Made by a program: the position numbers and the translations under genes
Source: an uncultured Candidatus Saccharibacteria bacterium
GTDB lineage: Bacteria > Patescibacteriota > Minisyncoccia > Phycocordibacterales > Phycocordibacteraceae
Length of the DNA stretch: 64,000 bases
NCBI GenBank assembly: GCA_964398815.1
Contig: CAYNNZ010000003.1
Location: 6,676 to 70,675, forward strand
Direction of reading: 5' to 3'
Notes under the pieces: model-generated
Database searches by the model: none
Told to the model about the DNA's origin: nothing
Seen by the model: the letters and a program-made list of their open reading frames with translations, nothing else
Part shown: piece after piece, positions 15,423 through 42,116 of the stretch
How positions within the stretch are numbered: position 1 is the first letter of the stretch
Layout: each line of letters opens with the position of its first letter

Positions 15423-16268
15423 ATGGCCAAACTCATTCTTGTTACCGGAGGCGCTGGATTCGTGGGCAGTAATCTATGCCGGCGTCTCGTTGCTGACGGA
15501 CATCGCGTTATCTCCCTTGATAATGGATTCGTCGGTGAGGGGAATCAACTCGAAGGGGTCGAGTACCGCACAGGACACACGAAGGACATCGAATCGATCG
15601 TGCCGGAGACGCCTGACATGATTTACCACCTCGGGGAATATTCTCGTGTCGAACGCAGTCTTATCGAACCGGATGTGGTCTGGGATTTGAATGTGGCTGG
15701 TACATTCCGCGTTCTTGAATACTGGCGCTCACGGAAGTCAAAACTCATATACGCAGGGAGCTCAACGAAATTTGCCGATGGCGGTCTTGGTCGCGATCTT
15801 TCTCCCTATACCTGGACCAAGGCCACCAACACTGAACTCGTCCGGAATTACGGCGAGTGGTACGGTCTGCCGTACGCAATTACGTATTTCTATAACGTAT
15901 ACGGACCGGGGGAGCGTGCTGGTGCATACGGAACGGTCATCGAAATATTCAAACAGAAGCGACTCTCTGGAGAGCCGCTTACGGTGAACGCTCCCGGAAC
16001 CCAGAAGCGCAACTTCACGCACATCAACGATATCGTAGAGGGTCTTATCCTCGTTGGGGAACAGGGTGAGGGTGATGAATTCGGCCTCGGTAATCATGAG
16101 GCGTATTCCATCCTCGAAGTCGCTGAATTTTTCGGAGGAGAGATAGAAATGAAGCCAGAGGTTTCAGGTAACCGCATGAACTCAGACGTGGACACAAGCA
16201 AGTCGGAGCTGCTTGGATGGAAGGCGACGCATTCACTCCCGGATTACATCAAGAACTGCACGCAATAA
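15423..16268 (+). CDS. NAD-dependent epimerase/dehydratase (extended SDR) family protein
   Basis: MAKLILVTGGAGFVGSNL Rossmann motif; YxxxK active-site region (SPYTWTKAT). Start at ATG 15423 within ORF 15384-16268. Confidence 0.75.
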   Translation: MAKLILVTGGAGFVGSNLCRRLVADGHRVISLDNGFVGEGNQLEGVEYRTGHTKDIESIVPETPDMIYHLGEYSRVERSLIEPDVVWDLNVAGTFRVLEYWRSRKSKLIYAGSSTKFADGGLGRDLSPYTWTKATNTELVRNYGEWYGLPYAITYFYNVYGPGERAGAYGTVIEIFKQKRLSGEPLTVNAPGTQKRNFTHINDIVEGLILVGEQGEGDEFGLGNHEAYSILEVAEFFGGEIEMKPEVSGNRMNSDVDTSKSELLGWKATHSLPDYIKNCTQ

Positions 16269-17467
16269 TGAAGAAGGTTCTCATCTTCTCGCTCAACTAC
16301 TATCCCTTCGTTGGGGGAGCAGAAGTCGCAGTCAAAGAAATTACTGACCGCCTTCCGGCGGACGACTATGAGTTCCATATTCTCGTGCCGCACTACGATG
16401 CAAATCTTCCGAAGGAAGAAGTGATTGGTCGGGTTCACGTGCATCGGTTCGGCTTTAAGAAAGCGGGCGCGACCATCAGCGCCCAAAGCAGATATCCGCT
16501 CAAACTCAATAAGTACTACTACCAGATGCGGGCTGCTGCCGAAGCAGAGAAGCTGCACCGCACACATAAGTTCGATTTGATATGGGGCATGATGGCGCAT
16601 GCGACCGGCATCCCCGCAGGCATGTTCAAGGCGCGTCATCCTGAGATTCCATACCTGCTTACTCTTCAAGAGGGCGACCCGCTCGAATACATAGAACGGC
16701 TCATGAAGCCGGTGTGGCGACTGTTCAAGCAAGGATTTACCAAGGCGGATGGACTTCAGGCGATTTCGAATTTCCTCCTTGCGTGGGGAAAGCGTATGGG
16801 GTGTAGAGGAATTGCGGAAGTCATCCCCAACGGCGTCGATATTGCGCGATTCACTGCTCCAATCAGCGAGGCAGAAATCGGAAAGATGAAGCAGGAACTC
16901 GGAAAAGGGGAGCATGATGTGTACCTCGTGACTACCTCGCGGCTGGTGCACAAGAACGCGATAGACGACGTTATTCGCGCACTACCGCTTCTCGCTGAAA
17001 ATATTTCGTTCCTCGTGTATGGCATTGGTCCGGATGAGCCTATGCTCCGCGCTCTCGCAAAGGAACTTAAGGTGGAGGCGCGCGTACGCTTCATGGGACA
17101 GGCGTCTCACGAGAGTCTTCCACGCATACTCTCGGCCTGCGACATTTTTATACGACCCTCCCGCTCGGAAGGGATGGGTAATTCATTCATTGAGGCAATG
17201 GCTGCAGGTATCCCAGTCATCGCAACGCGTGAGGGTGGGATTCCGGACTTTTTGATAGATACGAAGCACTCCGAGCGTCCCGCTACCGGATTTGCCGTCT
17301 CGAAAGACTCTCCGCAGGAAATTGCCGTTACGGTAAATCACATCCTTTCTAATCAGGAGGAGGTGTCGAATACAATCGCCAACGCTCGTGCGCTCGTCAG
17401 CGAGCGATACGATTGGAACACCATTGCGAAACAGATGCAGGATTTGTTCGCACGTCTCCTTGCATAG
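16268..17467 (+). CDS. Glycosyltransferase family 4 (GT-B, retaining)
   Basis: MKKVLIFSLNYYPFVGGAEV N-terminus. C-terminal Glycos_transf_1 motif …RPSRSEGMGNSFIEAMAAGIPVIATREGG. The start overlaps the upstream stop (TAATG). Confidence 0.7.
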   Translation: MKKVLIFSLNYYPFVGGAEVAVKEITDRLPADDYEFHILVPHYDANLPKEEVIGRVHVHRFGFKKAGATISAQSRYPLKLNKYYYQMRAAAEAEKLHRTHKFDLIWGMMAHATGIPAGMFKARHPEIPYLLTLQEGDPLEYIERLMKPVWRLFKQGFTKADGLQAISNFLLAWGKRMGCRGIAEVIPNGVDIARFTAPISEAEIGKMKQELGKGEHDVYLVTTSRLVHKNAIDDVIRALPLLAENISFLVYGIGPDEPMLRALAKELKVEARVRFMGQASHESLPRILSACDIFIRPSRSEGMGNSFIEAMAAGIPVIATREGGIPDFLIDTKHSERPATGFAVSKDSPQEIAVTVNHILSNQEEVSNTIANARALVSERYDWNTIAKQMQDLFARLLA

Positions 17468-17507
17468 CGGCCTAGCGCCACGTCCTTGGCAGGGTACAAT
17501 ACCGCTC

Positions 17508-18515
17508 ATGCGCATCTTGCTCGGCTGCCCAGTGCCCGTTGATACGGTCGCCGGACCTGCCACTGTCGCTCGCGAATTTATTGCCTCCTTCCGCGGGAAG
17601 GGCGATAACGTGCGGGTAGCGACTTTCACTTCCTTCGAGCGGACACTCCCGCTCCCGCTTCGACACGTCGTTTTCTTCGTGCGCATCTTTCCTGAGGTCA
17701 TAAAATCTGATGCGGTACTTATGCTCGATCCTGCAAGCACAGGACCGGCACTCTCGCTTGCGGCGCGCATTACGCGCACTCGCTCGGTGCTGCGCATTGG
17801 CGGCGATTTCCTCTGGGAGTCCTATGTGGAGCGGACCGGTGAGCCAATCCTGCTTTCGCAGTTCAATCAAACGACGCACCCGCTGTCGCTTAAGGAGCGT
17901 TTTATACGAAGTGCGACTGCTATGACGCTCAAACTTTCAACCACGGTTATTTTCACCACCGAGTGGCAGCGCCATCTCTGGCAGGGCCACTATGGATTCG
18001 ACATGGATGCGGCGGAGGTCATACCGCCCGTGCTCCCATCTCGCGAGCCGTCACCGGCGACCGGTAAGGTCTTTCTTTCTGGTCACCGTTCCATGCGCAT
18101 TAAGAACGGGGCGGTGCTGCGCGCAGTGTGGAAGGAAGTCGAGGCGACCCATCCTGAGGCGGTGCTCGATATAGGAGAGCGTAGTCCTGCCGAATTCGCT
18201 GCTGCACTCAAAGACTGTTACGCCGTCATTGTTCCCTCAATAAGCGAAGTCTCGCCGAATGTGGTATTCGAGGCTATACGCTATGGAAAGCCGTTCATCG
18301 CTCCGCGTGATACGGGAATTTTCGATGAATTGTCGTCGCTCGGTAAGTTCGTCGATACGAGGAATCCTCAAGAGATTGCGCAGGCAGTCATTGAACTCCT
18401 GAATCCTTCTGAGTACAAAGCGTACGTAGAGCGCATACGAGATTTCGAGACTTCACGTAGCTGGGAAGAAGTCGCATTCGCGTACCGTCGTGCGCTACGA
18501 CCTTCAGGCATATGA
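17508..18515 (+). CDS. Glycosyltransferase (GT4-like)
   Basis: MRILLGCPVPVDTVAGPATV… N-terminus; C-terminal …VIVPSISEVSPNVVFEAIRYGKPFIAP (GT1-fold C-domain). Start at internal ATG 17508. Confidence 0.5.
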   Translation: MRILLGCPVPVDTVAGPATVAREFIASFRGKGDNVRVATFTSFERTLPLPLRHVVFFVRIFPEVIKSDAVLMLDPASTGPALSLAARITRTRSVLRIGGDFLWESYVERTGEPILLSQFNQTTHPLSLKERFIRSATAMTLKLSTTVIFTTEWQRHLWQGHYGFDMDAAEVIPPVLPSREPSPATGKVFLSGHRSMRIKNGAVLRAVWKEVEATHPEAVLDIGERSPAEFAAALKDCYAVIVPSISEVSPNVVFEAIRYGKPFIAPRDTGIFDELSSLGKFVDTRNPQEIAQAVIELLNPSEYKAYVERIRDFETSRSWEEVAFAYRRALRPSGI

Positions 18516-19699
18516 AAGCAATCTTTATAGGTTCAGACCCGTCCCTTTATAATCCGGAATCAAGCGCGTACGCGCGCATGAAGGAATACGCTGCTGCCAT
18601 CGGTACGCTGCGAATTATCATGCGTTCTGACGAAGCAGACTCCGTCCATGAGGATGGCGCACTCACCATTGAGGGAGTTCGTGCTGGCAGGCTCGAGAGC
18701 ATGCGCGTGCTTGCTGCACGAGCGAAGGAGCGCATTGGTACGGACGGCGTAGAGGTCGTGTCCGCACAGGATCCGTTCGAGCATGGCTGGGCTGCGATGA
18801 AGGCGGTCGAAGGAACGAATGCACGTCTCCATATACAGGTGCACACAGACTTCCTCTCACCTTGGTTCGTGCGTGGCGGCATCGCACGCTCGCCGCAGGT
18901 CCCTGTCCCGGTCAAGAATCGCGTACGCCAAGTAATCGCAGGTCGGGTGCTCCCGAAGGCGCATGGCATCCGCGTCGTTTCTGTGCGCATCAAGGACTCT
19001 CTCGTAAAGAAATACGGCACAAAAATCGTTGAACCCACCGTGCTCCCGATAGCGGTCGGTACTGTATTGCCCGGACCTGTCGAGCTACCCACGCATAATT
19101 TCCCCTTCGTGCTTGCAACGGTTGGGCGCCTCGAGCCAGAGAAACGCATCGAAGACATCATTGAAGCGCTCGCGAATGTAACCGAACGCTTCCCGGCAAT
19201 CGGCCTCATGATTATTGGAGAGGGGAGTGAGAAGGCGCGGCTCATGACGCTCGTCGTCGAGAAAGGACTGACGGGCAAAGTCATATTTACGGGAGACCGA
19301 CCGGATGCCTGGGGACTCATGCGAAGTGCTCAGGGCTACATCCAAGCAAGCGCCTATGAAGGGTATAGTCGTACGCTCGTGGAGGCTGCGCTCGCGCGTG
19401 TACCCATCATCACGAGCGACGTAGGAATTGTCGGCGAGGTATTTGCTGGCTATGAGGATGTTCTTGCGACGCCGCCCGGTGACCCGACGAATCTTGCGTA
19501 CCACATGATTGCGCTTCTAGAGGACCGTCCAGGAAATGAATTGCGCATTAGAAGCGCCGAGGCGAAAGCGCTTGCGCATACGAAGCAGTATGAAAACTTG
19601 CCGCAGCTGATTGCTGCAGACCTTGCGCGTCTGGTGTCCACACCTGAAATAAAAGAGGAGGGGCCCACGACAGCAAGTGCCGTGAGCCCCATGGGGTAG
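18512..19699 (+). CDS. Glycosyltransferase family 4
   Basis: …FVLATVGRLEPEKRIEDIIEA…YIQASAYEGYSRTLVEAALARVPIITSDVG (E-x7-E motif). Overlaps the upstream stop by 4 nt. Confidence 0.65.
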   Translation: MKAIFIGSDPSLYNPESSAYARMKEYAAAIGTLRIIMRSDEADSVHEDGALTIEGVRAGRLESMRVLAARAKERIGTDGVEVVSAQDPFEHGWAAMKAVEGTNARLHIQVHTDFLSPWFVRGGIARSPQVPVPVKNRVRQVIAGRVLPKAHGIRVVSVRIKDSLVKKYGTKIVEPTVLPIAVGTVLPGPVELPTHNFPFVLATVGRLEPEKRIEDIIEALANVTERFPAIGLMIIGEGSEKARLMTLVVEKGLTGKVIFTGDRPDAWGLMRSAQGYIQASAYEGYSRTLVEAALARVPIITSDVGIVGEVFAGYEDVLATPPGDPTNLAYHMIALLEDRPGNELRIRSAEAKALAHTKQYENLPQLIAADLARLVSTPEIKEEGPTTASAVSPMG

Positions 19700-19852
19700 G
19701 AAGGGCACATCAAGCCATATTTCAATCAAAGTCAAGTACGGCAACGTTTCTCGCAGAGAGCGAGTTATCACGAATATGGGGAGGCTTAACAGGGGCGTAT
19801 TTTGCGTGATACAGTCAACACATTCTTTATGGCAAGCACTGAAACAACGGCG

Positions 19853-20734
19853 ATGATAGATACCAAGTCTATTGCGGACGAACTCGTTATTGGGCTCATC
19901 GGGCAGGGGTATGTTGGGAAGAACTATGCAGATGACCTCGAAGATCGCGGCTATAGCATCGTCCGGTATGCGCTTGAAGAGCCGTACGCAGGCAACAAGG
20001 ATAAAATCGCAGACTGTGACATTGTCTTCATTGGCGTACCGACGCCAACCACCCCGGACGGGTTCGATGACTCGATTGTGCGCGCTGCTGTCGGGCTTGT
20101 CGGAGCAGGGAAAATTGCAGTAATCAAATCGACCGTTACTCCCGGAACCACGCTCTCTATTCAGGAACAGTATCCTGACCGCACCGTATTCTTCTCCCCG
20201 GAATTTCTTTCCGAGGCGACTGCGCGTCAGGATGTTTCTAATCCGTTCGTTTCGATTGTGGGAACGACAAAGCCGGGCGAACAGGAAAAGGAGGCGGAAC
20301 TCGTGCTCTCCGTGCTGCCGGAAGCTCCTTATAAGCGCATCATGACGTCTACTGAGGCGGAGATTTTCAAGTATGCGCATAACGTGAGCGGCTACGTGCA
20401 GATTATTTTCTTCAACATTCTCCATGACCTCGCGATATCGCTTGGTGCTTCTTGGGAGGAAATTGGAGCAGCAGTGAAAGCAGATCCTTTCATTAGCAGT
20501 CGATACTCTGACCCGATTCACAAGAGCGGTCGTGGCGCGGGCGGTCACTGCTTCATCAAGGATTTCGCTGCACTTCGCGAACTCTATTCGCGAACGGTTT
20601 CCGAGGACGCAGCCGGTATCGAATTTCTCGATGGTGCCGCTCGTAAGAATATTCACCTTCTGACTTCCACGAACAAGGACCTCGACCTGCTCGCAGGCGT
20701 GTATGGCGAGGACGTCATCAAAGCAAAGGCATGA
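19853..20734 (+). CDS. UDP-glucose/GDP-mannose dehydrogenase-family protein (short form), probable UDP-glucose 6-dehydrogenase
   Basis: N-terminal Rossmann LVIGLIGQGYVGKNYA, …IFIGVPTP…, and a catalytic Cys region GAGGHCFIKD. The start is ambiguous (ATGs at 19802/19829/19853). The gene sits immediately upstream of a UDP-glucuronate epimerase gene. Confidence 0.6.
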   Translation: MIDTKSIADELVIGLIGQGYVGKNYADDLEDRGYSIVRYALEEPYAGNKDKIADCDIVFIGVPTPTTPDGFDDSIVRAAVGLVGAGKIAVIKSTVTPGTTLSIQEQYPDRTVFFSPEFLSEATARQDVSNPFVSIVGTTKPGEQEKEAELVLSVLPEAPYKRIMTSTEAEIFKYAHNVSGYVQIIFFNILHDLAISLGASWEEIGAAVKADPFISSRYSDPIHKSGRGAGGHCFIKDFAALRELYSRTVSEDAAGIEFLDGAARKNIHLLTSTNKDLDLLAGVYGEDVIKAKA

Positions 20735-21720
20735 AAAAAGTACTCGTCACGGGCGTCGCAGGTTTCATAGGCTTTCATTTGGCTGAGCGACTCCTTGCTG
20801 ACGGATACACCGTCGTGGGCATCGATAACCTGAATGATTACTACGACGTACGCATCAAGGAGCGAAGACTCAAAATCCTAAAAGGATTTCCCAAGTTTTC
20901 GTTTAGGAAGCTCGACATTAGCGATTACGAAGCATTTGAGGAATTTTTGCGGAAGGAGAAGCCGAAGGACATAGTGCATCTCGCCGCACAGGCGGGTGTG
21001 CGCTATTCGCTCACGAACCCGTGGGCGTATGCGACCGCCAATTACGTCGGCACCTTGAACGTGTTTGAGGCCGCGAAGCGGCTTAAGTTTCCGCGCGTTA
21101 TTTACGCTTCTTCGAGCTCTGTCTACGGCACGAACAAGAAGAGTCCCTTCTCTGAGAGCGATCGCGTCGATACTCCTATGTCGCTCTATGCAGCTTCGAA
21201 GAAAGCAAATGAAGCGCTCGCGTACTCCTACCACCACCTCTACGGCATGGAGATGATTGGCCTCCGGTTCTTCACGGTCTATGGTCGGTGGGGAAGGCCC
21301 GACCTCGCGCTCTTCAAATTCGCGCGACGCATCCAGGCAGGAAAGCCCATCGATGTCTACAATCACGGGAAAATGAAACGCAGCTTCACGCACGTCAGCG
21401 ACATTACTGCGGCAATCGCGACCCTACTTACTCAAAAGCCGAGTGGCCGCTATAAGCTCTACAACCTCGGCGGTAGCGAAGTAGTATCTCTTCTCGGATT
21501 CGTTAAGTTGATTGAGAAGAATCTCGGTAAGAAGGCGAAGATTCGAATGCTTCCTATTCAGCCTGGCGATGTACCGGCTACGGTAGCGGACACGAGCGCC
21601 GCCAAGCGAGACCTCGGCTACGTTGCCAAGACGAAGGTGGAGGAGGGAATTGCCGACTTCATCGAATGGTTCCGTGAAGAACAGACATTCCTCGCTACGC
21701 TCGAGGAACCGAAGCAATAG
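20731..21720 (+). CDS. UDP-glucuronate 4-epimerase (NAD-dependent epimerase, Cap1J/WbnF-like)
   Basis: MKKVLVTGVAGFIGFHLAERLL…GIDNLNDYYD…YAASKKANE…FFTVYGRWGRPDLA is the typical UDP-GlcA epimerase signature. ATGA overlap with the upstream gene. Confidence 0.75.
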   Translation: MKKVLVTGVAGFIGFHLAERLLADGYTVVGIDNLNDYYDVRIKERRLKILKGFPKFSFRKLDISDYEAFEEFLRKEKPKDIVHLAAQAGVRYSLTNPWAYATANYVGTLNVFEAAKRLKFPRVIYASSSSVYGTNKKSPFSESDRVDTPMSLYAASKKANEALAYSYHHLYGMEMIGLRFFTVYGRWGRPDLALFKFARRIQAGKPIDVYNHGKMKRSFTHVSDITAAIATLLTQKPSGRYKLYNLGGSEVVSLLGFVKLIEKNLGKKAKIRMLPIQPGDVPATVADTSAAKRDLGYVAKTKVEEGIADFIEWFREEQTFLATLEEPKQ

Positions 21721-21722
21721 CC

Positions 21723-22115
21723 ATGCCTATTTTGCCTCCCGCTCTCGCGAAGGCAGTCCGGTACCTCATTTCCGGAGGGAGTGCTGCAGTCGTTAATCTC
21801 GGCTCGTTCGCAGTGATGACGAAAGTATTCGGCGTGTGGTACCTTGCCGCGTCAATCGCAGCATTTCTTCTTTCATTTGTGGTGAGCTTCGTCCTTCAGC
21901 GCTCATGGACATTCGAAGTACGCGGGACTACAGCACTCGTTGAGCACACCTCGCTCTATTTCATTGCAGCACTTGCGAATCTCGCGCTCAATACATTTAT
22001 TGTCTTCTTGCTCGTAGAATACGCAGGAAGCGGCTCATTGCTCGCGCAGTTCATTGCGGGAGTCATCGTGGCGTGCGAAAGCTTCTTCGTCTACCGCCTG
22101 ATTTTCAAAATATGA
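21723..22115 (+). CDS. GtrA-family polysaccharide synthesis membrane protein
   Basis: 130 aa with 4 TM; …YLISGGSAAVVNLGSFAVM…QRSWTFEV… matches the GtrA-like pattern. Confidence 0.7.
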   Translation: MPILPPALAKAVRYLISGGSAAVVNLGSFAVMTKVFGVWYLAASIAAFLLSFVVSFVLQRSWTFEVRGTTALVEHTSLYFIAALANLALNTFIVFLLVEYAGSGSLLAQFIAGVIVACESFFVYRLIFKI

Positions 22116-23137
22116 GACTACTGGTCGTCACCCAGGTGCTCGATGAGGAAGATCCGGTACTGGGATTCTTCTGCCGATGGGTGACGGAACTTGCGGACCG
22201 CGCGGAATCTATCGTCGTCGTCTGCCTGAAGGAAGGGAAGCATACGCTCCCGGAAAACGTAGCCGTGCACTCGTTAGGGAAGGAAGAAGGAGCGCAGCCC
22301 GCGTTCGTATACGCAGTCCGATTCAAGTATCTTGCCTGGAAATTACGCCGTCAGTACGATCGCGTGCTCGTTCACATGAATCAGGAGTATCTTCTTATCG
22401 CCGGACCTATGTGGAAGGTGCTCGGGAAGCCGGTGTATCTTTGGCGCAATCACTACGCGGGCTCGTTTCTCACCGATATCGCCGCCACGTTCGCGAAGAA
22501 TGTATTCTGTACCTCACGGCACTCCTACACCGCAAAATATCGTAAGACCATGCTGATGCCAGTCGGTGTTGATCTTGAGAATTTCCCGATAGGCACGAGT
22601 GAGCGACAGCCACGCTCTATTCTGTTCCTCGCTCGTATCGCTCCCTCAAAACGCGCAGATATGTTCATTGATGCGCTCGGTCGACTCATCGCACGAGGTA
22701 TCTCGTTTATTGCGTCGGTCTATGGGTCTCCGCTCCCTGAGGATGAGCGCTATTACGAAAGCATTAAGGCCCGTGCCGAAGATGCCGGGCTTCATTCTCG
22801 CGTCGCGTTCCATCCGGGCGTTACTCACCGCGAGGCCGCAGCGCTCTATCAGACACACGAGATATTCGTGAACTGTTCGCCCTCCGGAATGTTCGACAAG
22901 ACACTCTTCGAAGCAGCAGCGAGCGGCTGCCTCGTCATCGCCGCGAGCGATGACTTCCGCACGCTCGCAGGCCAGTCGGCGTACGCTGCCGATGATGAGA
23001 TGCTCGCTAAGGTGCTTGAAAAGAAGCTTGCGCTTTCCCCTGAGGAAAAAGAAATGCGCCGGAAGGAGTTGCGTGAACTCGCTGAGGACCATTCATTACC
23101 CGCGCTTGCAGACGCTCTTATAAGAGCGATACAGTAG
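22112..23137 (+). CDS. Glycosyltransferase family 4
   Basis: MRLLVVTQVLDEEDPVLGFF… N-terminus; C-terminal …NCSPSGMFDKTLFEAAASGCLVIAAS. ATGA overlap with gtrA. Confidence 0.6.
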   Translation: MRLLVVTQVLDEEDPVLGFFCRWVTELADRAESIVVVCLKEGKHTLPENVAVHSLGKEEGAQPAFVYAVRFKYLAWKLRRQYDRVLVHMNQEYLLIAGPMWKVLGKPVYLWRNHYAGSFLTDIAATFAKNVFCTSRHSYTAKYRKTMLMPVGVDLENFPIGTSERQPRSILFLARIAPSKRADMFIDALGRLIARGISFIASVYGSPLPEDERYYESIKARAEDAGLHSRVAFHPGVTHREAAALYQTHEIFVNCSPSGMFDKTLFEAAASGCLVIAASDDFRTLAGQSAYAADDEMLAKVLEKKLALSPEEKEMRRKELRELAEDHSLPALADALIRAIQ

Positions 23138-23141
23138 CCCT

Positions 23142-24549: not shown

Positions 24550-24550
24550 C

Positions 24551-32516: not shown

Positions 32517-32532
32517 GTCCTTTCTGGCGGCA

Positions 32533-33273: not shown

Positions 33274-33381
33274 GATTGAGCTCCAAAAAACTTTCAATAT
33301 ACGATACCATGGTAATATATAAATGTCAAACACTGACCCGCAACCTTTTACGTCTAATGTTGGTATGATGAGGGACAACCC

Positions 33382-34518: not shown

Positions 34519-35212
34519 GATACTCATACCGACCTATAACGAAGCCGGCAATATCGCGAGCATCATCGCTCGCGTGCGCGAGGTCGTGCCTGAGGCCCGC
34601 ATTCGGGTCATCGACGATAACTCTCCGGACGGGACGGGAGATATCGTACGGGAATTCGCCGCAAAAGACTCGCAGGTGATGTTGCTTTCCCGGAGCGGAA
34701 AGGAAGGCCTCGGAAAGGCGTACCTTCATGGGTTTGCCGAAGCACTCAAGGACCCCAGCGTTACGCACATACTGATGATGGATGCAGATTTCTCTCATGA
34801 CCCTGAGTACATCCCGCAGTTGCTCGCAAAGTCAGCGGACCACGAACTGGTCACGGGCTCGCGCTATATTCCGGGAGGAGCGACCGAGGGATGGGAAGGG
34901 TGGCGTCGGTATCTCTCCACGGGAGGTAATGCCTACGTACGCGCGATTCTCGGCATTCCCGTGCACGACGTGACGGCAGGATTCAACCTGATTGCGACTG
35001 ATGCGCTGCGCCGGATTGATTTCGCGCGCCTCGATGCGTCTGGCTATGCGTTCCAGATTGAACTCAAGTATCTCCTGTGGAAGGCAGGAGCTCGTCCTGC
35101 AGAAGTGCCTATCCTTTTCAAAAATCGCAGGGAAGGAGAATCGAAGATTTCGAATCACATTATTGCCGAGGGACTCATCGCACCATGGAAACTTCTCTTC
35201 AAGAACCGATAG
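34511..35212 (+). CDS. GT2 polyprenyl-phosphate sugar synthase (Dpm1/ArnC/GtrB-like)
   Basis: …ILIPTYNEAGNIASII…RVIDDNSPDGTGDIV…MDADFSHDP (the DxD motif). Start uncertain: in-frame GTG 34511 overlaps the upstream stop; the ORF track frame begins at 34334. Confidence 0.7.
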   Translation: MTEILIPTYNEAGNIASIIARVREVVPEARIRVIDDNSPDGTGDIVREFAAKDSQVMLLSRSGKEGLGKAYLHGFAEALKDPSVTHILMMDADFSHDPEYIPQLLAKSADHELVTGSRYIPGGATEGWEGWRRYLSTGGNAYVRAILGIPVHDVTAGFNLIATDALRRIDFARLDASGYAFQIELKYLLWKAGARPAEVPILFKNRREGESKISNHIIAEGLIAPWKLLFKNR

Positions 35213-36054
35213 CCTGTCCAGTATGCGCGGCTGACGTCTCGCGGATATATCAGCGCAAGAACGGGTATGAGATAGTCGTGTGCGATGTCTGTCACGTGCG
35301 ATACGTGCACCCCATGCCTACTGCTCTTGAGGACCTCTACGCGGAGAACTACTTTGCGGGGGCGGATGAAGGATTCGGATATGTTGACTATGACGCCGAC
35401 AAAGAACCGATGGTGGGTGCGTTCAAGAAATACCTTCAGCACGTCCGCAAACTCTCACCCCAGGCAAAATCCTTGCTGGATGTCGGCGCTGCAACTGGAT
35501 TCTTCCTTGATATTGCACGCACAGACGGCTTTACGGTCGCGGGTGTCGAGATATCCGAGTTTGCTGCCCAGAAGGGGAGAGACAAGGGTATCGAGATGAC
35601 CACCGGCACGCTCGATCAAGTGTCCGGAACGTATGATGTTATCTCGATGCTCGACCTCATCGAGCATGTGACCGACCCTCGTGCGGAACTTAAGAAGGCG
35701 CACGCACTCTTGGCCGAACATGGCCTTCTCGTCATTAATACTCCTGATGCCGGGAGTCCGTATGCAAAACTGATGGGGCCGAAATGGCATTTGATTGTCC
35801 CGCCCGAGCACCTCTTTTACTTCGACAGGAAAAACATCGCGAACCTTCTTGCGCAGGAGGGGTTCAAGGTCGAGCTAACGACCACTATAGGCAAGAACTT
35901 CACGCTTCCGTATATATTCCGCACAGTACACGGCTGGCTCGGGTGGAGTGTCCTCTCGTGGTTCGCGAAGGTGGCGGGGTTGCCAGTCCTGCGCGATATC
36001 GCGCTCCCTATTAATCTGGGAGACAACATGTTCGTTATCGCGAGAAAGGTATGA
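35185..36054 (+). CDS. Class I SAM-dependent methyltransferase with an N-terminal Zn-ribbon (Methyltransf_23-like)
   Basis: CPVCAAD…CDVCHVRYV; motif I LLDVGAATGFFL; …VISMLDLIEHV. ATG 35185 overlaps the GT2 gene by 28 nt. Confidence 0.6.
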   Translation: METSLQEPIACPVCAADVSRIYQRKNGYEIVVCDVCHVRYVHPMPTALEDLYAENYFAGADEGFGYVDYDADKEPMVGAFKKYLQHVRKLSPQAKSLLDVGAATGFFLDIARTDGFTVAGVEISEFAAQKGRDKGIEMTTGTLDQVSGTYDVISMLDLIEHVTDPRAELKKAHALLAEHGLLVINTPDAGSPYAKLMGPKWHLIVPPEHLFYFDRKNIANLLAQEGFKVELTTTIGKNFTLPYIFRTVHGWLGWSVLSWFAKVAGLPVLRDIALPINLGDNMFVIARKV

Positions 36055-37724
36055 AGTCCAAGGTGACGAGTATCTTTATCGGCATTTGCGTCCTTCTTAT
36101 GGTCGCCCCGTGGGGTGTGTTGGCGGTGGTGAATCACGGATCGTTCACGGTCCCGCCTGAGCTTATGGACGATAGCGGGTACTACTACGCTCGCATGCAG
36201 GCAGTAGCAGATGGCCACCCCTTCATCGGTAACCCGTACTTCAAAGAGCACGCAGATGCGATGGCCTCTGCCTTCTTCGGTGCCGACTGGATTGCCAGCA
36301 TTCCACTCTTCCTGCATCTCCCGCTTGTTCCTGCGGCGCTTTTGAACCTTGCGCTTTCGACAGCGCTGTTCGTGGCGCTGTCACTGATGCTCCTGAGGCT
36401 TCTTGGGCTCTCGTCCAAATGGCAGATGGCAGGTGTGCTCGCGCTCCTCCTGACAGCGTACTGGTTCCTTCTGCGTCCAGTTGCGATGCAAGTAGTGTTC
36501 CCGTCCTTCCTTTTTTTCTTGCTCGGATATCTCACGTGGCTGCAGAACCCGGCGAGCAAGAAGCGGCTCGCACTCCTCGTCGTCTCAAGCGCGCTTACGT
36601 TCTATCTGTATACCTATCTGTGGCAGATAGTCACGATAGTCATCGGACTTACGCACGTAATGTTCCTCACACCCGCACGCAAACGGTATCTATCATTAGC
36701 TGTCGCTGACTTCGTAATAGCTTTCCTCATCGCACCAATAATTTGGTATACCTATCTACAACTTCAGAATCCCGACTACTGGGAGACGGTAACTCGTATC
36801 GGGTATATCGCGACCCACACGTTTGGCGCTGCAGCAGTACTGAATCTTGGACTTACTGTCATTGCTTTTCTTCTCGTACTGATTGCTGGTCGCAAGGTGC
36901 TTACGCGACCGAACAGTATGTTCTTCACGTTCACTGGTGCGGCGCTTGTTATCGCATCATTCAGCAATGTCATTACGGGCAAAGATCTCGAAACTGCCGT
37001 GCATATGGGTCGATTCGTTGAGTTATGGGGAGCACTCGCCGTATCTTGCGCTGCGTTCTATTTCGTTTCCGAAAAGGGCACTGACAGAAATGGCTCGATC
37101 GCACTTGTTGTTTCCGGCGCCCTGATGCTCCTGCTTCTGGGGAATCTCGTGAGTGTGCAGAATCGTTCGGATGAATATCTACGAGGCGAGTCATATCAGG
37201 AGGTGCTGACCTGGCTGAATGAAAACACTCCTCCTGGTTCTGTCGTGCTCGCTGACGATAAGTTGTCGTACTACATACCGGTCGCAACCCGCGACTTCGT
37301 TTTGTTCCAGCCCGATGGAGGTCTCTACCTCGTTCCCGATAGGGAAGTAGAGGACCGGTACCTCGCATCACGGATATTCTCGAATCTCACCAAAGACCAG
37401 CTGAAAGCGGACTTCAGGCTGTATGCGGGGGTAGGGAATGCCGTGCATCACTTCAAGGTCCATAATCGCGAGGTCGCACTATGTCGCGCGCTCCATCTTC
37501 CTCACTGTGGCGACATCATTCCTGATGCCGTCACGGACCGCGGCGAGGCCTATTTCGATGAGCTGTATATGAGGTACCAACTCATGAGTGCAGCAAAGAC
37601 AAGCACTCTCAAAGACTATGGGGTAGAGTACATTGTCAGCGCGACACCACTGATGGACCTCTCGCAGTTCACGCTCGTAAAAGTTAGCGGATTCTATATC
37701 TACCTCCTTACTCAGCCCACATGA
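36051..37724 (+). CDS. Polytopic membrane protein (about 12 TM plus a C-terminal soluble domain), candidate GT-C-type lipid-linked sugar transferase
   Basis: 557 aa. TM helices through about residue 370, then a hydrophilic about 180-aa domain. The ATGA overlap with the upstream methyltransferase and co-orientation with the GT2 gene suggest a Dpm1-like/ArnT-like pair. No motif-level proof. Confidence 0.4.
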   Translation: MKSKVTSIFIGICVLLMVAPWGVLAVVNHGSFTVPPELMDDSGYYYARMQAVADGHPFIGNPYFKEHADAMASAFFGADWIASIPLFLHLPLVPAALLNLALSTALFVALSLMLLRLLGLSSKWQMAGVLALLLTAYWFLLRPVAMQVVFPSFLFFLLGYLTWLQNPASKKRLALLVVSSALTFYLYTYLWQIVTIVIGLTHVMFLTPARKRYLSLAVADFVIAFLIAPIIWYTYLQLQNPDYWETVTRIGYIATHTFGAAAVLNLGLTVIAFLLVLIAGRKVLTRPNSMFFTFTGAALVIASFSNVITGKDLETAVHMGRFVELWGALAVSCAAFYFVSEKGTDRNGSIALVVSGALMLLLLGNLVSVQNRSDEYLRGESYQEVLTWLNENTPPGSVVLADDKLSYYIPVATRDFVLFQPDGGLYLVPDREVEDRYLASRIFSNLTKDQLKADFRLYAGVGNAVHHFKVHNREVALCRALHLPHCGDIIPDAVTDRGEAYFDELYMRYQLMSAAKTSTLKDYGVEYIVSATPLMDLSQFTLVKVSGFYIYLLTQPT

Positions 37725-38626
37725 TACGTACACTCCTCCGTAATATTCGTTACCTTCTCACGGAGGACCTGCGTAGCACTACGTGGCGATTGTTTATGAT
37801 GGAGAAGTCCATTCGTGGGGTAAGTACGCTCGCGCTCCGTACGTCGCATCCGGGACTACCTCTGTATGCGCCGGTCGCCCACAGTGAAATCAACGAGCAC
37901 GAGCAGCGCATTTATTCTCAAAATGGCGAGGACGGTATCCTCATGTGGCTTTTTTCGAAAATAGGAACCAGTACCAAAACATTTATAGAATTTGGTGCAG
38001 GAAGCGGCCGCGAGTGCCTCGCAGCTAATCTCGTTCTCAACTTTGGATGGGCAGGATTGCTTATGGATGGTTCAGGAGAAAATATCTCATCCGCTCGTCT
38101 CTTCTTTAAGTACTTACTCCCGTGGTCACAGTACGAGCAGCTGGAGATTAGGCAGGAGTTCGTAACGCGAGAAAATATCGAAACGCTCCTTGCGGGCCGT
38201 CGACATCAGGGAGAAGTCGACCTTCTGTCCATAGATATAGACGGTAACGATTATTGGGTGTGGGAAGCCATTGAGTCTATTACGCCGCGGGTGGCCGTTA
38301 TCGAATACAACGCAACGTTTGGACCGACCGCATCAATCACAGTGCCGTATCGTGCGGACTTCAACGCCTATGCAGAACATCCACTCGGTCTCTACCACGG
38401 CGTCTCGGTACAAGCACTCAAGAAACTGGGAGAGCGAAAGGGGTACACTTTCCTCGGGTGTGATTCGAATGGCGCGAATACCTTCTTCGTGCGGAATAAC
38501 CTTGTTGGGAGTCTGGCTCCTGCCGACCCCGTCCAGGCATTTTATGACAATGAGCATAAACTTAAGCGCGGCTCCCAGCTCGCCCAAGCAGAGCTTATTG
38601 CTGGGAAGGAGCTAGTTGAGGTGTAG
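37721..38626 (+). CDS. FkbM-family methyltransferase-like protein
   Basis: …IYSQNGEDGILMWLFSKIG…FIEFGAGSGRECL… (the Q-x-GED motif typical of the FkbM family). ATGA overlap. Confidence 0.4.
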   Translation: MIRTLLRNIRYLLTEDLRSTTWRLFMMEKSIRGVSTLALRTSHPGLPLYAPVAHSEINEHEQRIYSQNGEDGILMWLFSKIGTSTKTFIEFGAGSGRECLAANLVLNFGWAGLLMDGSGENISSARLFFKYLLPWSQYEQLEIRQEFVTRENIETLLAGRRHQGEVDLLSIDIDGNDYWVWEAIESITPRVAVIEYNATFGPTASITVPYRADFNAYAEHPLGLYHGVSVQALKKLGERKGYTFLGCDSNGANTFFVRNNLVGSLAPADPVQAFYDNEHKLKRGSQLAQAELIAGKELVEV

Positions 38627-39872
38627 TACGCACCGAGTGATACTTCACCAGCGCGCTCAGCAATATGAGGTTAAATACACGGCCAATTATGCGCGCGACA
38701 ATTACGCCGAGCAGGCCATAGAAAATGGTACACGCCACTAACGTTCCAATGAGCACAATGGGGGATGCAATGTTGAAGATATAGAGCTCTCGTTTAGCGG
38801 CCTGTGCCTGCAGAACAGTGAGTGGAATCGTATTTGAGACAAACATAAGAGAGAGTGCGAACAGCTGCGAATACCATATCGCGTCTGTATAGGCCGGTAG
38901 GAAAAGTTGGAAAAAAAGCGGTGCCAGTGCAACATAAAATATCGTTGCTAGTGCCAGAAATCCTGTGTAATACGCCAAACGATGCCACAAGTTTGCCTCA
39001 ATTTCTTGTGGAGTACGTTGCGAGAACTTTGGAAATGCGAGGGTCGCAATATTGTTAAGCAGTCCCTTGATCTGTTCCGGGAAGGCGAGGGCAAATGTAT
39101 ACACCGCAAGCTGGGCAGCACCAAGGAAGTGGAATACTAGGAGCTTATCTATCTGCTGCGAGATAGTCGCCAATACGTTCATGGCACTGAAATGACTTCC
39201 GTTACGGAAGAAATCAGGAGCTTCCTTAGTATTGGGCTTGAACCGCTTATAGACCCACAATCCAAATAGGAGTCCAATAATAACGTTGCCGAGCAAGTAG
39301 ATTCCGAAGAAGACCAAAGGGTCCTGCGACACGAACATGGTTCCCAGAAGAAGGAGTGCGGGGAATAGGTTCAGAATTATTCCGAAGAGTGAATAGAGGC
39401 GGAATTCCCGCTTGGCTTCGAGGTATATGCCAAACAGGAAGCTGGCCTGCATGAATGGACCGACGAGCGCGATCAAAAGGAGTCCGAATCCGAGTGTCTG
39501 GTTATGCTGAATGAAATAATAGGCCGATGCAGGCACCGAGATAAGAGAGATGGGAAGACTGCCGAGCACCGTGAGCTTAAACGACCGTTTGTAGACTCCC
39601 TCGTCTCCGCGTGCGATTGCTTGAGTTGCTGCAGTCGAGAGGCCGGTTAAGGAAAACGCAGATAGGGTCCAAAAGACCGACAATAGGAAGCGATAGGTGC
39701 CGTATGTCTCCTTTGAAACGAAGTGAGCAAACGCGATCGAGGAACCGAAAGCCACGAGTGCAATGCCAATCTGGCTTATAGTCAGCCAACCTATACCTTT
39801 TATGGCATAGGTCATGTCGGTCTTAAAATAGCGCTCGCTCCATCGGAGGAGACGCTCGAGGCGGGCATGCAT
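38595..39872 (-). CDS. Wzx-like oligosaccharide flippase (MOP superfamily polysaccharide biosynthesis protein)
   Basis: 425 aa, at least 12 TM helices, with the typical N-terminal region of polysaccharide-biosynthesis/MOP exporters. Confidence 0.65.
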   Translation of the reverse strand: MHARLERLLRWSERYFKTDMTYAIKGIGWLTISQIGIALVAFGSSIAFAHFVSKETYGTYRFLLSVFWTLSAFSLTGLSTAATQAIARGDEGVYKRSFKLTVLGSLPISLISVPASAYYFIQHNQTLGFGLLLIALVGPFMQASFLFGIYLEAKREFRLYSLFGIILNLFPALLLLGTMFVSQDPLVFFGIYLLGNVIIGLLFGLWVYKRFKPNTKEAPDFFRNGSHFSAMNVLATISQQIDKLLVFHFLGAAQLAVYTFALAFPEQIKGLLNNIATLAFPKFSQRTPQEIEANLWHRLAYYTGFLALATIFYVALAPLFFQLFLPAYTDAIWYSQLFALSLMFVSNTIPLTVLQAQAAKRELYIFNIASPIVLIGTLVACTIFYGLLGVIVARIIGRVFNLILLSALVKYHSVRTTPQLAPSQQ

Positions 39873-39941
39873 ATTCCTTATATAGTAGCCCCGCCTCCCT
39901 TGGGAGGCGAGTACCTAGCCTGTAACCGCCTGGCATAGGGG

Positions 39942-42116
39942 ATGGTGGCAGGGGTGGTATCATCTGCCCATATGACCATGAAGGACTTAGCCCGCTGGGC
40001 CGTGTATGTGCCGCTGTTTATCATCCCGTTCATTCCGCTCTATGTCGCGAACGACCTATTTTTCCCTTTCATAACCGGAAAGGGATTTGCGTTCCGCATA
40101 CTCGCTGAAATAGCGCTCGCTGGCTACGTAGTCCTCGCGATGGCCGATGCACGGTACCGTCCGCGATTCTCATGGGTCTTCGTCCTCTATGGCGCGTTTA
40201 TCCTCTGGATGCTTATTGCGGACCTCGCTGGCATGAATCCGCATAAGGCGCTCTGGAGCAACTTCGAGCGCATGGAGGGCTGGGTCACGCTCATACACGT
40301 CTTCATGTTCTTCCTCGTGTCAGGCGCGGTCTTCTCGACCGATAAGCTTTGGCGCAAGTGGTGGCTCACCTTCATCGGCGCTTCCGCGCTCCTGTGCTGC
40401 TACTGCCTCCTCCAGCTTTCAGGCGCAATCACCATCCATCAGGGAGGGGTGCGCGTCGACGGTACATTTGGAAACGCGGCATATCTCGCGGCATATCTTC
40501 TCTTCGCTGCGGCAGTGACCATCTGGCAGGCGCTTGAATCTAAGGAGTGGATGCGTTACTCACTTCTCGTCCTTGCCGCATTCCAAATCATCATTATCTT
40601 CTTCACTGCAACGCGCGGTGCCGTACTCGGCCTTGTCGGAGCAGGCCTCGTGGGCGGCATTCTCTGGGCGGTAGAAGCAGGAGGGAAATCCCGCAAGATA
40701 GCGGCCGGCATCGTGGGAATCATCATCCTCATGGCGGGAGGATTCTACCTCATAAAGGACAGTCAGTTCGTAAAGTCTGAGCCTACACTCGACCGCATCT
40801 CCTCCATCTCGCTCAAGGACCTCTCGGTGCGCTCGACCCTCTGGGGCATGGCCCTTAAGGGAGTCGCAGAGCGTCCGGTATTCGGTTGGGGTCAGGAAGG
40901 ATTCAATTACATATTCAATAAGTACTACGAGCCATCCCTCTATGCGCAGGAGCCGTGGTTCGATCGTGCCCACGATGTGTTCATCGACTGGCTCGTCGCA
41001 GGCGGCATCCCCGGATTCCTCCTCTTCCTCGGGGCATTCGCAACTGCCATCTGGGCCCTCTATCGGGGCGGGGCATCGCGTGAGGAGCGCATCCTGCTCA
41101 TCTCTGCACTCGTAGCCTATGGCATTCAGGGCATTGTGGTGTTCGATAACCTCTTTACCTATGTGCCGCTCGCAGCCATACTCGCGACTGCGCACACCGC
41201 GCGCAGCAAACCATGGAAGAAACTCGAGGCCATGCCGAACGCCGGCGAACCGACGCTTCAGATGGCGCTTCCGGTCGCAGCGGTCCTTGGCATTGCGCTC
41301 ATCTGGGTGGTAAACGTTCCGAACATTGCGGCAGCATACTCACTCGTTCGCGCTATTAGCATCACCAGCAATGACCTCGGCCCGAACGTCGCCTACTTCC
41401 AGAAGGCACTCGCTGAGCCGACTTTCGCCAAGCAGGAGGTCCGTGAGCAGTTGGTTATCTTCTCGAGTAATATCGCAGCAGCGCTCGCGAGCGCGCCGAC
41501 GAAGGAACTCGCTCAGGTGACCGGACTCGCACTTGATGAGATGGGTAAGGAGATTGAGTCTCAACCGAATGACGCGCGCCTGCGCCTCGAGTACGCACTT
41601 GGCTATCGTGTGACGGGTGACTATACGAGCGCGCTCAAGCAGATTGCCATTGCGCATCAGCTCTCTCCTCGCAAACAGTCCATCCTCATCGAGCAAGGCA
41701 TTGAGTACTGGCAGGTAGGCGAATTCGCGAAGGCGAAGGAAGCCTTTGACCTCGCATACTCAGTAGACCCATCGTTCGAAGCGCTCGCGGCATACGCTGC
41801 TGCCGGTACGATTGCGGCAGGGGACCTCGAGGGCGGTCGTGCCCAGCTGCTTGAGCGTACGGGCACCACTACCATCGATAACGAAGCGCTCGTCCTCGCG
41901 TACTATCAGGCGAAGGATTACACCGACCTCATCCTCGTGCTACAGGAACAGGTCCGTAAGCAGAATGGCTCGCCAGAATCCCGGTTCCGACTCGCCGCAG
42001 CGCTCGCTGCCGCAGGACGCACCGCCGAGGCGCGCCTGGAGGTATCGAAAGCAGTCGCCGAGCATCCTGAAATGGCGGCGCAGGCAGCCGAGTTCGTAAA
42101 GCATCTACCGAACTAA
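39942..42116 (+). CDS. O-antigen ligase/polymerase (Wzy_C)-family membrane protein with C-terminal TPR repeats
   Basis: About 10 TM with a large periplasmic loop (…FFTATRGAVLGLVGAGL… Wzy_C-like). C-terminal about 250 aa are TPR-like Ala-rich repeats. The start could be ATG 39972/39978. Confidence 0.6.
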   Translation: MVAGVVSSAHMTMKDLARWAVYVPLFIIPFIPLYVANDLFFPFITGKGFAFRILAEIALAGYVVLAMADARYRPRFSWVFVLYGAFILWMLIADLAGMNPHKALWSNFERMEGWVTLIHVFMFFLVSGAVFSTDKLWRKWWLTFIGASALLCCYCLLQLSGAITIHQGGVRVDGTFGNAAYLAAYLLFAAAVTIWQALESKEWMRYSLLVLAAFQIIIIFFTATRGAVLGLVGAGLVGGILWAVEAGGKSRKIAAGIVGIIILMAGGFYLIKDSQFVKSEPTLDRISSISLKDLSVRSTLWGMALKGVAERPVFGWGQEGFNYIFNKYYEPSLYAQEPWFDRAHDVFIDWLVAGGIPGFLLFLGAFATAIWALYRGGASREERILLISALVAYGIQGIVVFDNLFTYVPLAAILATAHTARSKPWKKLEAMPNAGEPTLQMALPVAAVLGIALIWVVNVPNIAAAYSLVRAISITSNDLGPNVAYFQKALAEPTFAKQEVREQLVIFSSNIAAALASAPTKELAQVTGLALDEMGKEIESQPNDARLRLEYALGYRVTGDYTSALKQIAIAHQLSPRKQSILIEQGIEYWQVGEFAKAKEAFDLAYSVDPSFEALAAYAAAGTIAAGDLEGGRAQLLERTGTTTIDNEALVLAYYQAKDYTDLILVLQEQVRKQNGSPESRFRLAAALAAAGRTAEARLEVSKAVAEHPEMAAQAAEFVKHLPN

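Follow-up and report, generated by a model that had tools for sequence, protein, structure and literature searches.

A probable O-antigen-like surface-glycan locus beside murB in a predicted Paceibacteria bacterium, and its doubtful link to a giant surface protein

Introduction

What kind of surface glycan is encoded by a 27-kb run of biosynthesis genes in a bacterium of the Candidate Phyla Radiation (CPR), and is that glycan placed on the giant surface protein encoded nearby? The question arises from a stretch of 64,000 nucleotides of contig CAYNNZ010000003.1 (hereafter the window), in which an initial annotation had recognised an approximately 27-kb glycan block at 15.4-42.1 kb and had proposed that the locus glycosylates the giant fibre. 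Members of the CPR, or Patescibacteria, are thought to live attached to host cells, and their surface is probably central and has been almost unstudied.

The block is real and lies at these coordinates by Pfam, NCBIfam and fold evidence, and the view that it encodes an elaborate, probably methylated cell-surface glycan is supported. The best reading is that of a hypervariable, O-antigen-like, Wzx-dependent surface-glycan locus that probably ends in a conserved ligase-type enzyme and occupies a fixed site by murB. Judged by its relatives, the glycan locus is genuine and ordinary for its lineage; glycosylation of the giant protein is possible but unlikely. The genes on which the argument turns first are the following.

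39942..42116, plus strand: Wzy_C-TPR protein, WaaL fold with an outward TPR domain (Wzy_C 63.5 bits against a cut-off of 31.7; TPR matches)
42116..43165, plus strand: murB, the right-hand neighbour, outside the glycan pathway (FAD_binding_4, MurB_C)
48680..49570, plus strand: 296-amino-acid (aa) protein with an N-terminal helix-turn-helix (HTH) domain of the HTH_17 type, present in 61 related loci
50183..64000, plus strand: giant open reading frame (ORF) of at least 4605 aa, open at the window end, with an N-terminal HTH-like domain, one membrane helix and a Thr/Gly/Ala/Ser-rich region

A hypervariable glycan site in a conserved neighbourhood

For comparison, 80 species-level loci with 10-kb flanks, anchored on GatB, were taken from a species-level genome collection. 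The named homologs of the block's proteins, together with all 80 of these loci, are Paceibacteria, Parcubacteria or Kaiserbacteria-type metagenome-assembled genomes, and the host is, on sequence grounds, a Paceibacteria (CPR) bacterium. Six genes (Wzy_C-TPR, murB, secA, obg, gatB and the HTH gene) keep a colinear order in 54/54 loci holding at least five of them, and Wzy_C-TPR is present in 46 of the 52 loci whose upstream part is long enough to show it. Compared with the window, median identity is 74% for SecA, 66% for GatB, 63% for Obg, 48% for Wzy_C-TPR, 46% for MurB, 36% for the HTH protein and 34% for Wzx, a homolog of which (at least 50% query coverage) was detected in 19 related loci.

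The genes further upstream are variable. A census of about 3 kb upstream of Wzy_C-TPR in 46 species returned Wzx, Gmd and epimerases, methyltransferases, GT4 enzymes and NeuB, as well as ABC transporters, GtrA, FkbM and PMT_2 genes. The two closest species examined (L093 and L094; GatB 77-79%) have glycan gene sets quite different from that of the window, one with a 2,3-dehydratase, RmlC and FkbM, and the other with a sulfotransferase, a HAD protein and NeuB. In another relative, L007, the whole glycan cassette sits elsewhere, with no murB or giant gene after it.

On this synteny, we read the locus as this species' form of a hypervariable glycan site that lies upstream of murB across the sampled clade. 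Its richness in methyltransferases, which had been called unusual for a compact genome, would likewise be typical of the lineage, and relatives carry methyltransferase-rich glycan genes at the same site. A horizontally acquired island was considered and rejected on the basis of the even GC over the block and of the glycan genes at the same site in the sampled relatives. GC across the window is even at about 0.55 and the sequence is bacterial. The exact protein encoded at 36051, described below, is present on 14 public metagenome contigs with identical gene order.

The Wzy_C-TPR protein as a conserved final enzyme

The AlphaFold2 (AF2) model of the Wzy_C-TPR protein, with a predicted local distance difference test score (pLDDT) of 89, matches the O-antigen ligase WaaL (7tpg_B; E 2.4e-5, TMt 0.64, 455 aligned columns), and its C-terminal ~260 aa form a TPR superhelix like the TPRs of OGT and SPY. 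There are 13 membrane helices with a K/R-rich loop ahead of the last one, and because this loop precedes helix 13 the TPR domain is expected to lie outside the cell. Residues R225, R285/R297 and H344 are invariant in 30 sequences, although the conserved Arg/Arg/His set is common to WaaL and PglL and so does not discriminate between them (PMC3643930). PglL_A (PF15864) is absent from the Pfam matches of the protein at E<=0.01.

The family is large, numbering at least 2997 homolog clusters; every one of the top 120 is at least 50% identical (119 of 706-752 aa and one of 593 aa). In relatives whose upstream glycan genes are wholly different, the protein is 64-74% identical. Because it is conserved while the upstream glycan genes are fully replaced, we infer a ligase-type enzyme rather than a repeat-specific polymerase. 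In O-antigen loci, repeat-specific polymerases normally co-vary with the repeat unit.

The same pattern bears on a classical Wzx/Wzy capsule or exopolysaccharide, in which the protein would be a repeat-unit polymerase and the polymer would be released or loosely attached. Wzx does adjoin the Wzy_C protein at the end of a glycosyltransferase-rich cluster, and the family 'oligosaccharide repeat unit polymerase' (TIGR04370) matches weakly, at 18.5 bits where its cut-off is 40. However, Wzy_C-TPR is as conserved as MurB where the glycan genes differ entirely, no Wzz/PCP-type gene is present among the scanned genes, and the best solved-structure match of the membrane domain is WaaL, with no Wzy structure in the top 50 matches for comparison. 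Such a capsule is quite unlikely here.

A protein acceptor deserves somewhat closer attention. In general O-linked protein glycosylation, Wzy_C-TPR would be a PglL/WsaB-type enzyme that passes the oligosaccharide en bloc to Ser/Thr residues of surface proteins recognised by its TPR domain. This would fit a CPR host with no lipopolysaccharide (LPS) genes in the window, the retention of Wzy_C-TPR while glycan genes change, as expected of a donor-promiscuous transferase, and the resemblance of the outward TPR to the protein-binding TPRs of OGT and SPY. In addition, the Wzy_C family includes O-oligosaccharyltransferases inseparable from WaaL by homology (PMC3643930), and the pilin-glycosylating TfpW also has a periplasmic TPR domain (bioRxiv 10.1101/2020.04.19.049825). 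The missing PglL_A match counts against it, as does the evidence from the giant gene given below, and as a general system O-linked glycosylation is judged unlikely.

The stop codon of the Wzy_C-TPR gene overlaps the murB start (TAATG, 42114-42118) and the two genes abut or nearly abut in L093, L094 and L009, an arrangement that suggests co-translation with this peptidoglycan precursor enzyme. A promoter and terminator scan of 41.5-50.7 kb gave nothing above chance expectation.

A GT-C protein coupled to GT2, GtrA and a methyltransferase

A second set of genes centres on a membrane protein with a GT-C fold.

33382..34518, plus strand: GT4 glycosyltransferase with which the conserved core cassette opens (Glyco_trans_1_4 6e-24; adjoins GT2 in L007-L010)
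34511..35212, plus strand: soluble 233-aa GT2 of the Dpm1/GtrB/AglJ type that putatively makes a polyprenyl-phosphate sugar (Glycos_transf_2 2e-26; start taken from public gene calls)
35185..36054, plus strand: S-adenosylmethionine (SAM) methyltransferase with an N-terminal CxxC...CxxC zinc ribbon (Pfam Methyltransf_23 2.8e-28)
36051..37724, plus strand: 557-aa GT-C-fold membrane glycosyltransferase (AF2 model and Foldseek; no Pfam or NCBIfam match)
38595..39872, minus strand: Wzx-type (MOP family) flippase (Polysacc_synt 2.4e-19, 70.3 bits against a cut-off of 28.2)
21723..22115, plus strand: GtrA-family small membrane protein (GtrA_DPMS_TM 2.8e-21, 76.3 bits against a cut-off of 26.1)

The 557-aa protein matches no Pfam or NCBIfam family, YfhO and PMT_2 included, and its profile found nothing meaningful among PDB sequences. 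An AF2 model built from an alignment of 22 homologs has a pLDDT of 91, and its top 35 Foldseek matches in the PDB are all GT-C enzymes (PglB, STT3, AftA, DPY19, ArnT, Emb, ALG9, PMT) with template modelling (TM) scores of about 0.45-0.51, so that no subfamily stands out. The protein has a C-terminal outside domain. Its first outside loop bears a DD40-41 motif, of which Asp41 does not vary in the 22-homolog alignment. An acidic residue in this loop is the usual position of the GT-C catalytic acid. The sequence holds no WWDxG motif (no WWD or WxDxG pattern) and no STT3 Pfam match even at E<=10, and hhalign of its profile against the PMT_2 protein from L010 gave a probability of 1%. The model thus describes a GT-C fold that is neither an STT3-type oligosaccharyltransferase nor a PMT; homology to oligosaccharyl or mannosyl transferases, on which the initial annotation had staked its proposal, holds for the fold and not for the STT3 or PMT families by sequence.

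An exhaustive profile search recovered 1700 representative sequences of this family, of which 369 score E<=1e-30. Among its longer members, the GT-C region is preceded by a fused N-terminal partner, which is GT2 (n=3; P0153, P0222 and P0228), a GtrA/DPMS transmembrane domain (n=5) or Methyltransf_23 (n=1; P0172). In the window the GT2 (34511) and Methyltransf_23 (35185) partners lie directly upstream of the GT-C gene, with GtrA (21723) at another place in the locus. Four other genomic contexts show the series GT4, GT2, (Methyltransf_23), GT-C, Wzx and Wzy_C-TPR again, at 35-52% identity; the core run is conserved in L007-L010 and L091, GT2 adjoins GT-C in L007/L008, L009 and L010, and the two are fused in L091/L092.

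The conserved adjacency and the fusions in relatives argue that GT2, GtrA, the methyltransferase and GT-C are functionally coupled. There is strong evidence, at the level of sequence, for a GtrA/GtrB/GtrC-like module with an integral methyltransferase that would add sugars outside the cell. The GtrA and GT2 fusions imply that the donor is a polyprenyl-phosphate monosaccharide rather than a lipid-linked oligosaccharide. Modules of GT2, GtrA and GT-C decorate O-antigens, teichoic acids and wall polysaccharides (PMC8035078), and streptococcal pairs of GtrB and GT-C O-glycosylate Ser/Thr-rich regions of membrane proteins (bioRxiv 10.1101/2024.05.05.592596). Because such modules decorate polysaccharides and, in streptococci, proteins, the design of the module does not identify its acceptor.

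The pair of GT2 and GT-C had originally been taken for machinery of the oligosaccharyltransferase type, with N-x-S/T sequons of the giant fibre as the sites of N-glycosylation, in the manner of an S-layer. The GT-C fold and the functional tie hold up; the motif and the family match of an oligosaccharyltransferase are absent. In favour of N-glycosylation, the best fold matches of the 557-aa protein include PglB and STT3, and the best NCBIfam match of the GT2 is AglJ of archaeal S-layer N-glycosylation. However, AftA, DPY19 and ArnT score equally well by fold, there is neither a WWDxG motif nor an STT3 match, and the fusions imply a monosaccharide-phosphate-polyprenol donor. The AglJ match itself is far below its cut-off (56 bits against 325), as are those to dolichyl-P-hexose transferase, PgfS, PpgS and ArnC, the other best NCBIfam matches of this GT2.

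In two related loci, further large membrane proteins lie beside the homolog of the 557-aa protein (L010:1-4692 and L091:10357-12258). They comprise PMT_2-type GT-C proteins as well as a 557-aa and a 633-aa protein without Pfam match; hhalign showed no kinship of the GT-C protein with this second unannotated 557-aa membrane protein of L010. Several extracytoplasmic transferases per locus may be common in the lineage.

The giant protein and the question of a link

The giant gene does lie 8 kb downstream of the block, with its start at 50183 (8.07 kb away), and this placement is conserved: in 56-57 of 59 loci a very long frame opens no more than 4 kb past gatB, and 56 of 57 such giants have an HTH-like N-terminus as in the window. 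The sequons that had been described as abundant are explained by composition. The protein contains 83 N-x-S/T motifs against 85.1 +/- 7.5 in 2000 composition-preserving shuffles (z = -0.28), and zero D/E-x-N-x-S/T, the bacterial PglB-type sequon, over the at least 4605 aa in the window. Neither of the two closest species checked has the GT2-methyltransferase-GT-C module within 10 kb upstream of Wzy_C-TPR; one of them has a 4937-aa giant, and the contig of the other ends 2.1 kb into that position. N-glycosylation of the fibre by this module is therefore very improbable, and with sequons, motif, synteny and closest species all lacking specific support, the proposal that the locus serves the giant protein is not borne out.

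O-linked transfer is less improbable. Within such a system, Ser/Thr-rich regions might be O-glycosylated by the GT-C module in addition to, or in place of, Wzy_C-TPR, with the giant protein as one substrate. It has 28% Ser+Thr, and streptococcal GtrB and GT-C pairs act on regions of this kind (bioRxiv 10.1101/2024.05.05.592596); moreover, Wzy_C-TPR and the giant gene are both near-universal in the clade. Against this, murB, secA, obg, gatB and the HTH gene, followed by a 612-nt gap, separate the giant gene from the locus, the giant gene persists in 6 loci without Wzy_C-TPR beside murB, and the L007 cassette lacks the block from murB to the giant gene after it. The composition of the giant protein (Gly/Ala/Leu/Val-rich and Pro-poor) and an adhesin-like match speak for a folded fibre and against a disordered region of the mucin kind. 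A literature search gave no paper joining Candidate Phyla Radiation, protein glycosylation and S-layer, and a search on protein glycosylation or giant surface proteins in CPR/Parcubacteria returned nothing relevant.

Co-conservation of the locus and the giant gene is accordingly of two kinds. Wzy_C-TPR and the giant gene are both near-universal and fixed in position, whereas in the sequence covered the variable genes, including the GT-C module, are not kept alongside the giant gene. Since both Wzy_C-TPR and the giant gene sit in a clade-wide colinear housekeeping block, their synteny carries little functional information. We regard glycosylation of any protein by the locus as unlikely and glycosylation of the giant protein in particular as more doubtful still. 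The same low standing applies to the fuller proposal that Wzy_C-TPR is a general O-oligosaccharyltransferase that would place a methylated oligosaccharide on Ser/Thr-rich envelope proteins, the giant fibre included, with the GT-C module adding a further sugar.

The giant protein has some features of its own. Its sole PDB sequence match, a weak one (E 1.8e-5), is of aa 2800-2869 (58580-58790) to the trimeric-autotransporter adhesin CbpF of Fusobacterium nucleatum, which hints at an adhesin-like fibre. Besides the HTH domain no Pfam or PHROG domains were found in it, nor any tandem DNA repeats. The 296-aa protein and the giant N-terminus share an HTH_17/excisionase-like domain (30% identity, E 6e-11), which in the giant protein is followed by a single hydrophobic helix (aa ~117-130). 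The pair of a small HTH protein and an HTH-anchored giant occurs after gatB in nearly all sampled relatives. It is odd for a giant surface protein to carry a DNA-binding-type domain at its cytoplasmic end.

Gene content of the block and its flanks

All genes from 15384 to 42116 were scanned, with identities drawn from Pfam, NCBIfam and fold evidence. The block holds 26 genes. For 22 of them a domain, a family or a fold is matched at threshold; 21 of these belong to glycan or sugar-methylation families and one is a generic reductase. Besides the genes already given, the block contains the following.

15384..16268, plus strand: nucleotide-sugar epimerase/dehydratase of the short-chain dehydrogenase/reductase (SDR) type, first gene of the block (Pfam Epimerase 1.5e-41; NCBIfam generic, below cut-off)
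16217..17467, plus strand: GT4 glycosyltransferase (Glycos_transf_1 8e-35 and Glyco_transf_4)
17388..18515, plus strand: GT4-like glycosyltransferase, weak match (Glycos_transf_1 34.3 bits against a cut-off of 26.4)
18512..19699, plus strand: GT4 glycosyltransferase (Glycos_transf_1 2.5e-27)
19802..20734, plus strand: short UDP-glucose/GDP-mannose dehydrogenase-like protein, 310 aa (UDPG_MGDP_dh_N and central domain only)
20731..21720, plus strand: SDR nucleotide-sugar epimerase/dehydratase (GDP_Man_Dehyd, Epimerase ~1e-58; no equivalog cut-off reached)
22073..23137, plus strand: GT4 glycosyltransferase (Glyco_trans_1_4 1.9e-11)
23142..23921, plus strand: nucleotidyltransferase (RfaE-domain-II/TagD-like)-cupin fusion (CTP_transf_like and C-terminal MannoseP_isomer; NCBIfam)
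23908..24549, plus strand: SAM methyltransferase (Methyltransf_11 28.8 bits against a cut-off of 21.2)
24551..25639, plus strand: exostosin/GT47-like glycosyltransferase (Exostosin_GT47 42.9 bits against a cut-off of 33.4)
25660..26937, plus strand: methyltransferase of the nucleoside-diphosphate-sugar C-methyltransferase type with a zinc-binding N-terminal domain (Methyltransf_14 1.6e-51, Methyltransf_13 2.1e-23)
26941..27327, plus strand: small cupin, 128 aa, possible sugar isomerase/epimerase (Cupin_2 31.3 bits; no specific family match)
27331..28455, plus strand: DegT/DnrJ/EryC1-type sugar aminotransferase (PF01041 1.9e-116; best NCBIfam matches LegC and PseC, below cut-off)
28471..29757, plus strand: GT4 glycosyltransferase (Glycos_transf_1 6.7e-25)
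29759..30559, plus strand: 266-aa protein, methyltransferase-like below threshold only (Methyltransf_25 E 0.065; no PDB sequence match)
30577..31578, plus strand: GDP-mannose 4,6-dehydratase, Gmd (GDP_Man_Dehyd 1.3e-121; TIGR01472 393.8 bits against a cut-off of 415)
31640..32374, minus strand: 244-aa protein (HDOD below threshold only; called as a gene on public contigs)
32533..33276, minus strand: classical short-chain dehydrogenase/reductase (adh_short_C2 1.6e-46; NCBIfam generic SDR)
37721..38626, plus strand: 301-aa protein, FkbM-like below threshold only (Methyltransf_21 E 0.027, 15 bits against a cut-off of 22.7)

This inventory leaves most of the first gene list standing. GT2, the GT47-like protein, GtrA, Wzx, Wzy_C with TPR and the GT-C fold are all present, with six GT4 enzymes (one of them weak) in place of seven; the domain families of Gmd, DegT, the C-methyltransferase, the small cupin and the nucleotidyltransferase-cupin fusion are present as well. 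Two of four additional methyltransferases are solid (23908 and 35185) and two fall below threshold (29759, E 0.065; 37721, E 0.027). For the latter two proteins, of 266 and 301 aa, PDB sequence searches were empty and Pfam at E<=10 gave only below-threshold methyltransferase hints. The names 'UDP-GlcA 4-epimerase' and 'FdtA-like' remain guesses, as no equivalog cut-off is reached, and the statement that nearly every gene is glycan-related overlooks the two minus-strand genes at 31640-33276, which have no demonstrable glycan role.

What had been called a UDP-Glc dehydrogenase is a dehydrogenase-like protein in a short form of 310 aa. The UDP-binding domain at the C-terminus is missing but the GGHCFIKD cysteine motif is retained, and the protein scores 114 bits with TIGR03026 against a cut-off of 189.8. 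Its status as a pseudogene was rejected as unlikely because a short form (288 aa) recurs in L009. The exostosin/GT47-like protein has homologs in L009 (72% identity) and L093.

The left flank holds folD, secD, secF, 16S rRNA and tRNA-Ile, murD, murC and an ATPase similar to type IV secretion system (T4SS) coupling proteins; the right flank holds murB, secA, obg and gatB, then the 296-aa HTH protein and then the giant ORF. The T4SS-coupling-protein-like/HerA-like ATPase (13510-15255) borders the glycan block at its left edge, and ahead of it lies a 210-aa ORF without family match (12885-13517), which overlaps a methylase gene before it at that gene's end. The 16S rRNA gene (6856-8314) is complete; tRNA-Ile(GAT) comes after it at 8943-9018 and then protein-coding genes with no adjacent 23S, which is an unlinked rRNA arrangement.

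Proposed pathway

In the surface-glycan pathway that we consider probable, nucleotide sugars would first be tailored in the cytoplasm by Gmd, two SDRs, DegT, the C-methyltransferase, the cupins, the nucleotidyltransferase-cupin and the short dehydrogenase, to judge from their domain families, with amino, C-methyl and O-methyl sugars as likely products. Six GT4 enzymes and one GT47-like enzyme would build a lipid-linked oligosaccharide, which O-methyltransferases would modify and Wzx would flip over the membrane. Wzy_C-TPR would then transfer the oligosaccharide to a conserved envelope acceptor. In parallel, the GT2/GtrA/Methyltransf_23/GT-C module may make a polyprenyl-phosphate sugar, possibly methylated, and add it to the glycan or to the acceptor outside the cell; for this step the fold and the coupling have been demonstrated, and the donor and acceptor are presumed. 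Candidate acceptors are a wall polymer, peptidoglycan, a lipid anchor or a protein, and a non-protein envelope acceptor is favoured.

Several points weigh against this pathway. Its steps rest on genes and not on biochemistry. No sugar-nucleotide enzyme of the block reaches its NCBIfam equivalog cut-off. An initiating phosphoglycosyltransferase (WbaP/Bac_transf, WecA/MraY, Glycos_transf_4) had no match in the scanned window genes and was not found in the related loci L007-L010, L091, L093 and L094 either, and it may be encoded elsewhere in the genome; a Wzz/PCP chain-length regulator likewise had no match in the scanned window genes or in the related loci examined. The usual ligands of TPR domains are proteins or peptides, and a protein acceptor would thus suit this domain no less well than a polysaccharide one. 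Lastly, neither sequence nor fold tells Wzy polymerases, WaaL-type ligases and PglL-type O-oligosaccharyltransferases apart (PMC3643930).

Significance

The main value of the analysis is corrective, as the link to the giant protein rested on chance-level sequons and colinear housekeeping synteny. Beyond this, an O-antigen-like hypervariable glycan site beside murB suggests strong diversifying selection on surface sugars. The GT-C family of about 1700 representatives without Pfam or NCBIfam match has its partners (GT2, GtrA and a methyltransferase) revealed by fusions, and the highly conserved WaaL-fold enzyme with an outward TPR, paired with murB, offers a testable handle. If Wzy_C-TPR were a general O-oligosaccharyltransferase, it would be part of the first protein-glycosylation system described in CPR bacteria.

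Comparison with known systems

The module resembles GtrA/GtrB/GtrC and GtcA/CsbB (GtlA)/YfhO (GtlB) (PMC8035078), to which the Dpm1/GtrB-type GT2, the GtrA protein and the GT-C transferase of the window correspond and with which it shares coupling, seen here through adjacency and GT2::GT-C and GtrA::GT-C fusions. Unlike in those systems, the GT-C protein matches no family (YfhO and PMT_2 included), the GT2 is a soluble protein of 233 aa, GtrA is encoded 12 kb away, and Methyltransf_23 is an integral, sometimes fused, member of the module.

Streptococcal GtrB/PgtC2 and Pgf (bioRxiv 10.1101/2024.05.05.592596) are similar in that a polyprenyl-phosphate sugar from a GT2 is used by a GT-C enzyme on protein Ser/Thr outside the cell. 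This is a likeness by design and not by sequence comparison, and the streptococcal substrates are Ser/Thr-rich disordered regions, whereas the giant protein is not of the mucin-type disordered kind. In Pseudomonas TfpW (bioRxiv 10.1101/2020.04.19.049825) the periplasmic TPR is borne by a membrane glycosyltransferase; in the window it is borne by the Wzy_C protein and not by the GT-C protein.

PglL/PilO/WsaB and the Gram-positive slg clusters (PMC3643930, PMC2943079) share with the locus a Wzy_C enzyme that ends a glycan cluster without LPS, and a Ser/Thr-rich surface protein in the neighbourhood. They differ in that the window has no PglL_A motif, that the candidate substrate gene is not adjacent, that no S-layer protein has been recognised and that the system is known here from genes alone.

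Set against O-antigen and capsule Wzx/Wzy clusters with WaaL, the locus stands apart in its CPR host with no LPS genes in the window, in the lack of an initiating transferase or Wzz locally, and in a Wzy_C protein with an extra 13th helix, a ~260-aa outward TPR and an overlap with the murB start. It shares with these clusters a Wzx flippase, a WaaL-fold Wzy_C protein with invariant Arg/Arg/His, and variable sugar genes at a fixed site between conserved genes.

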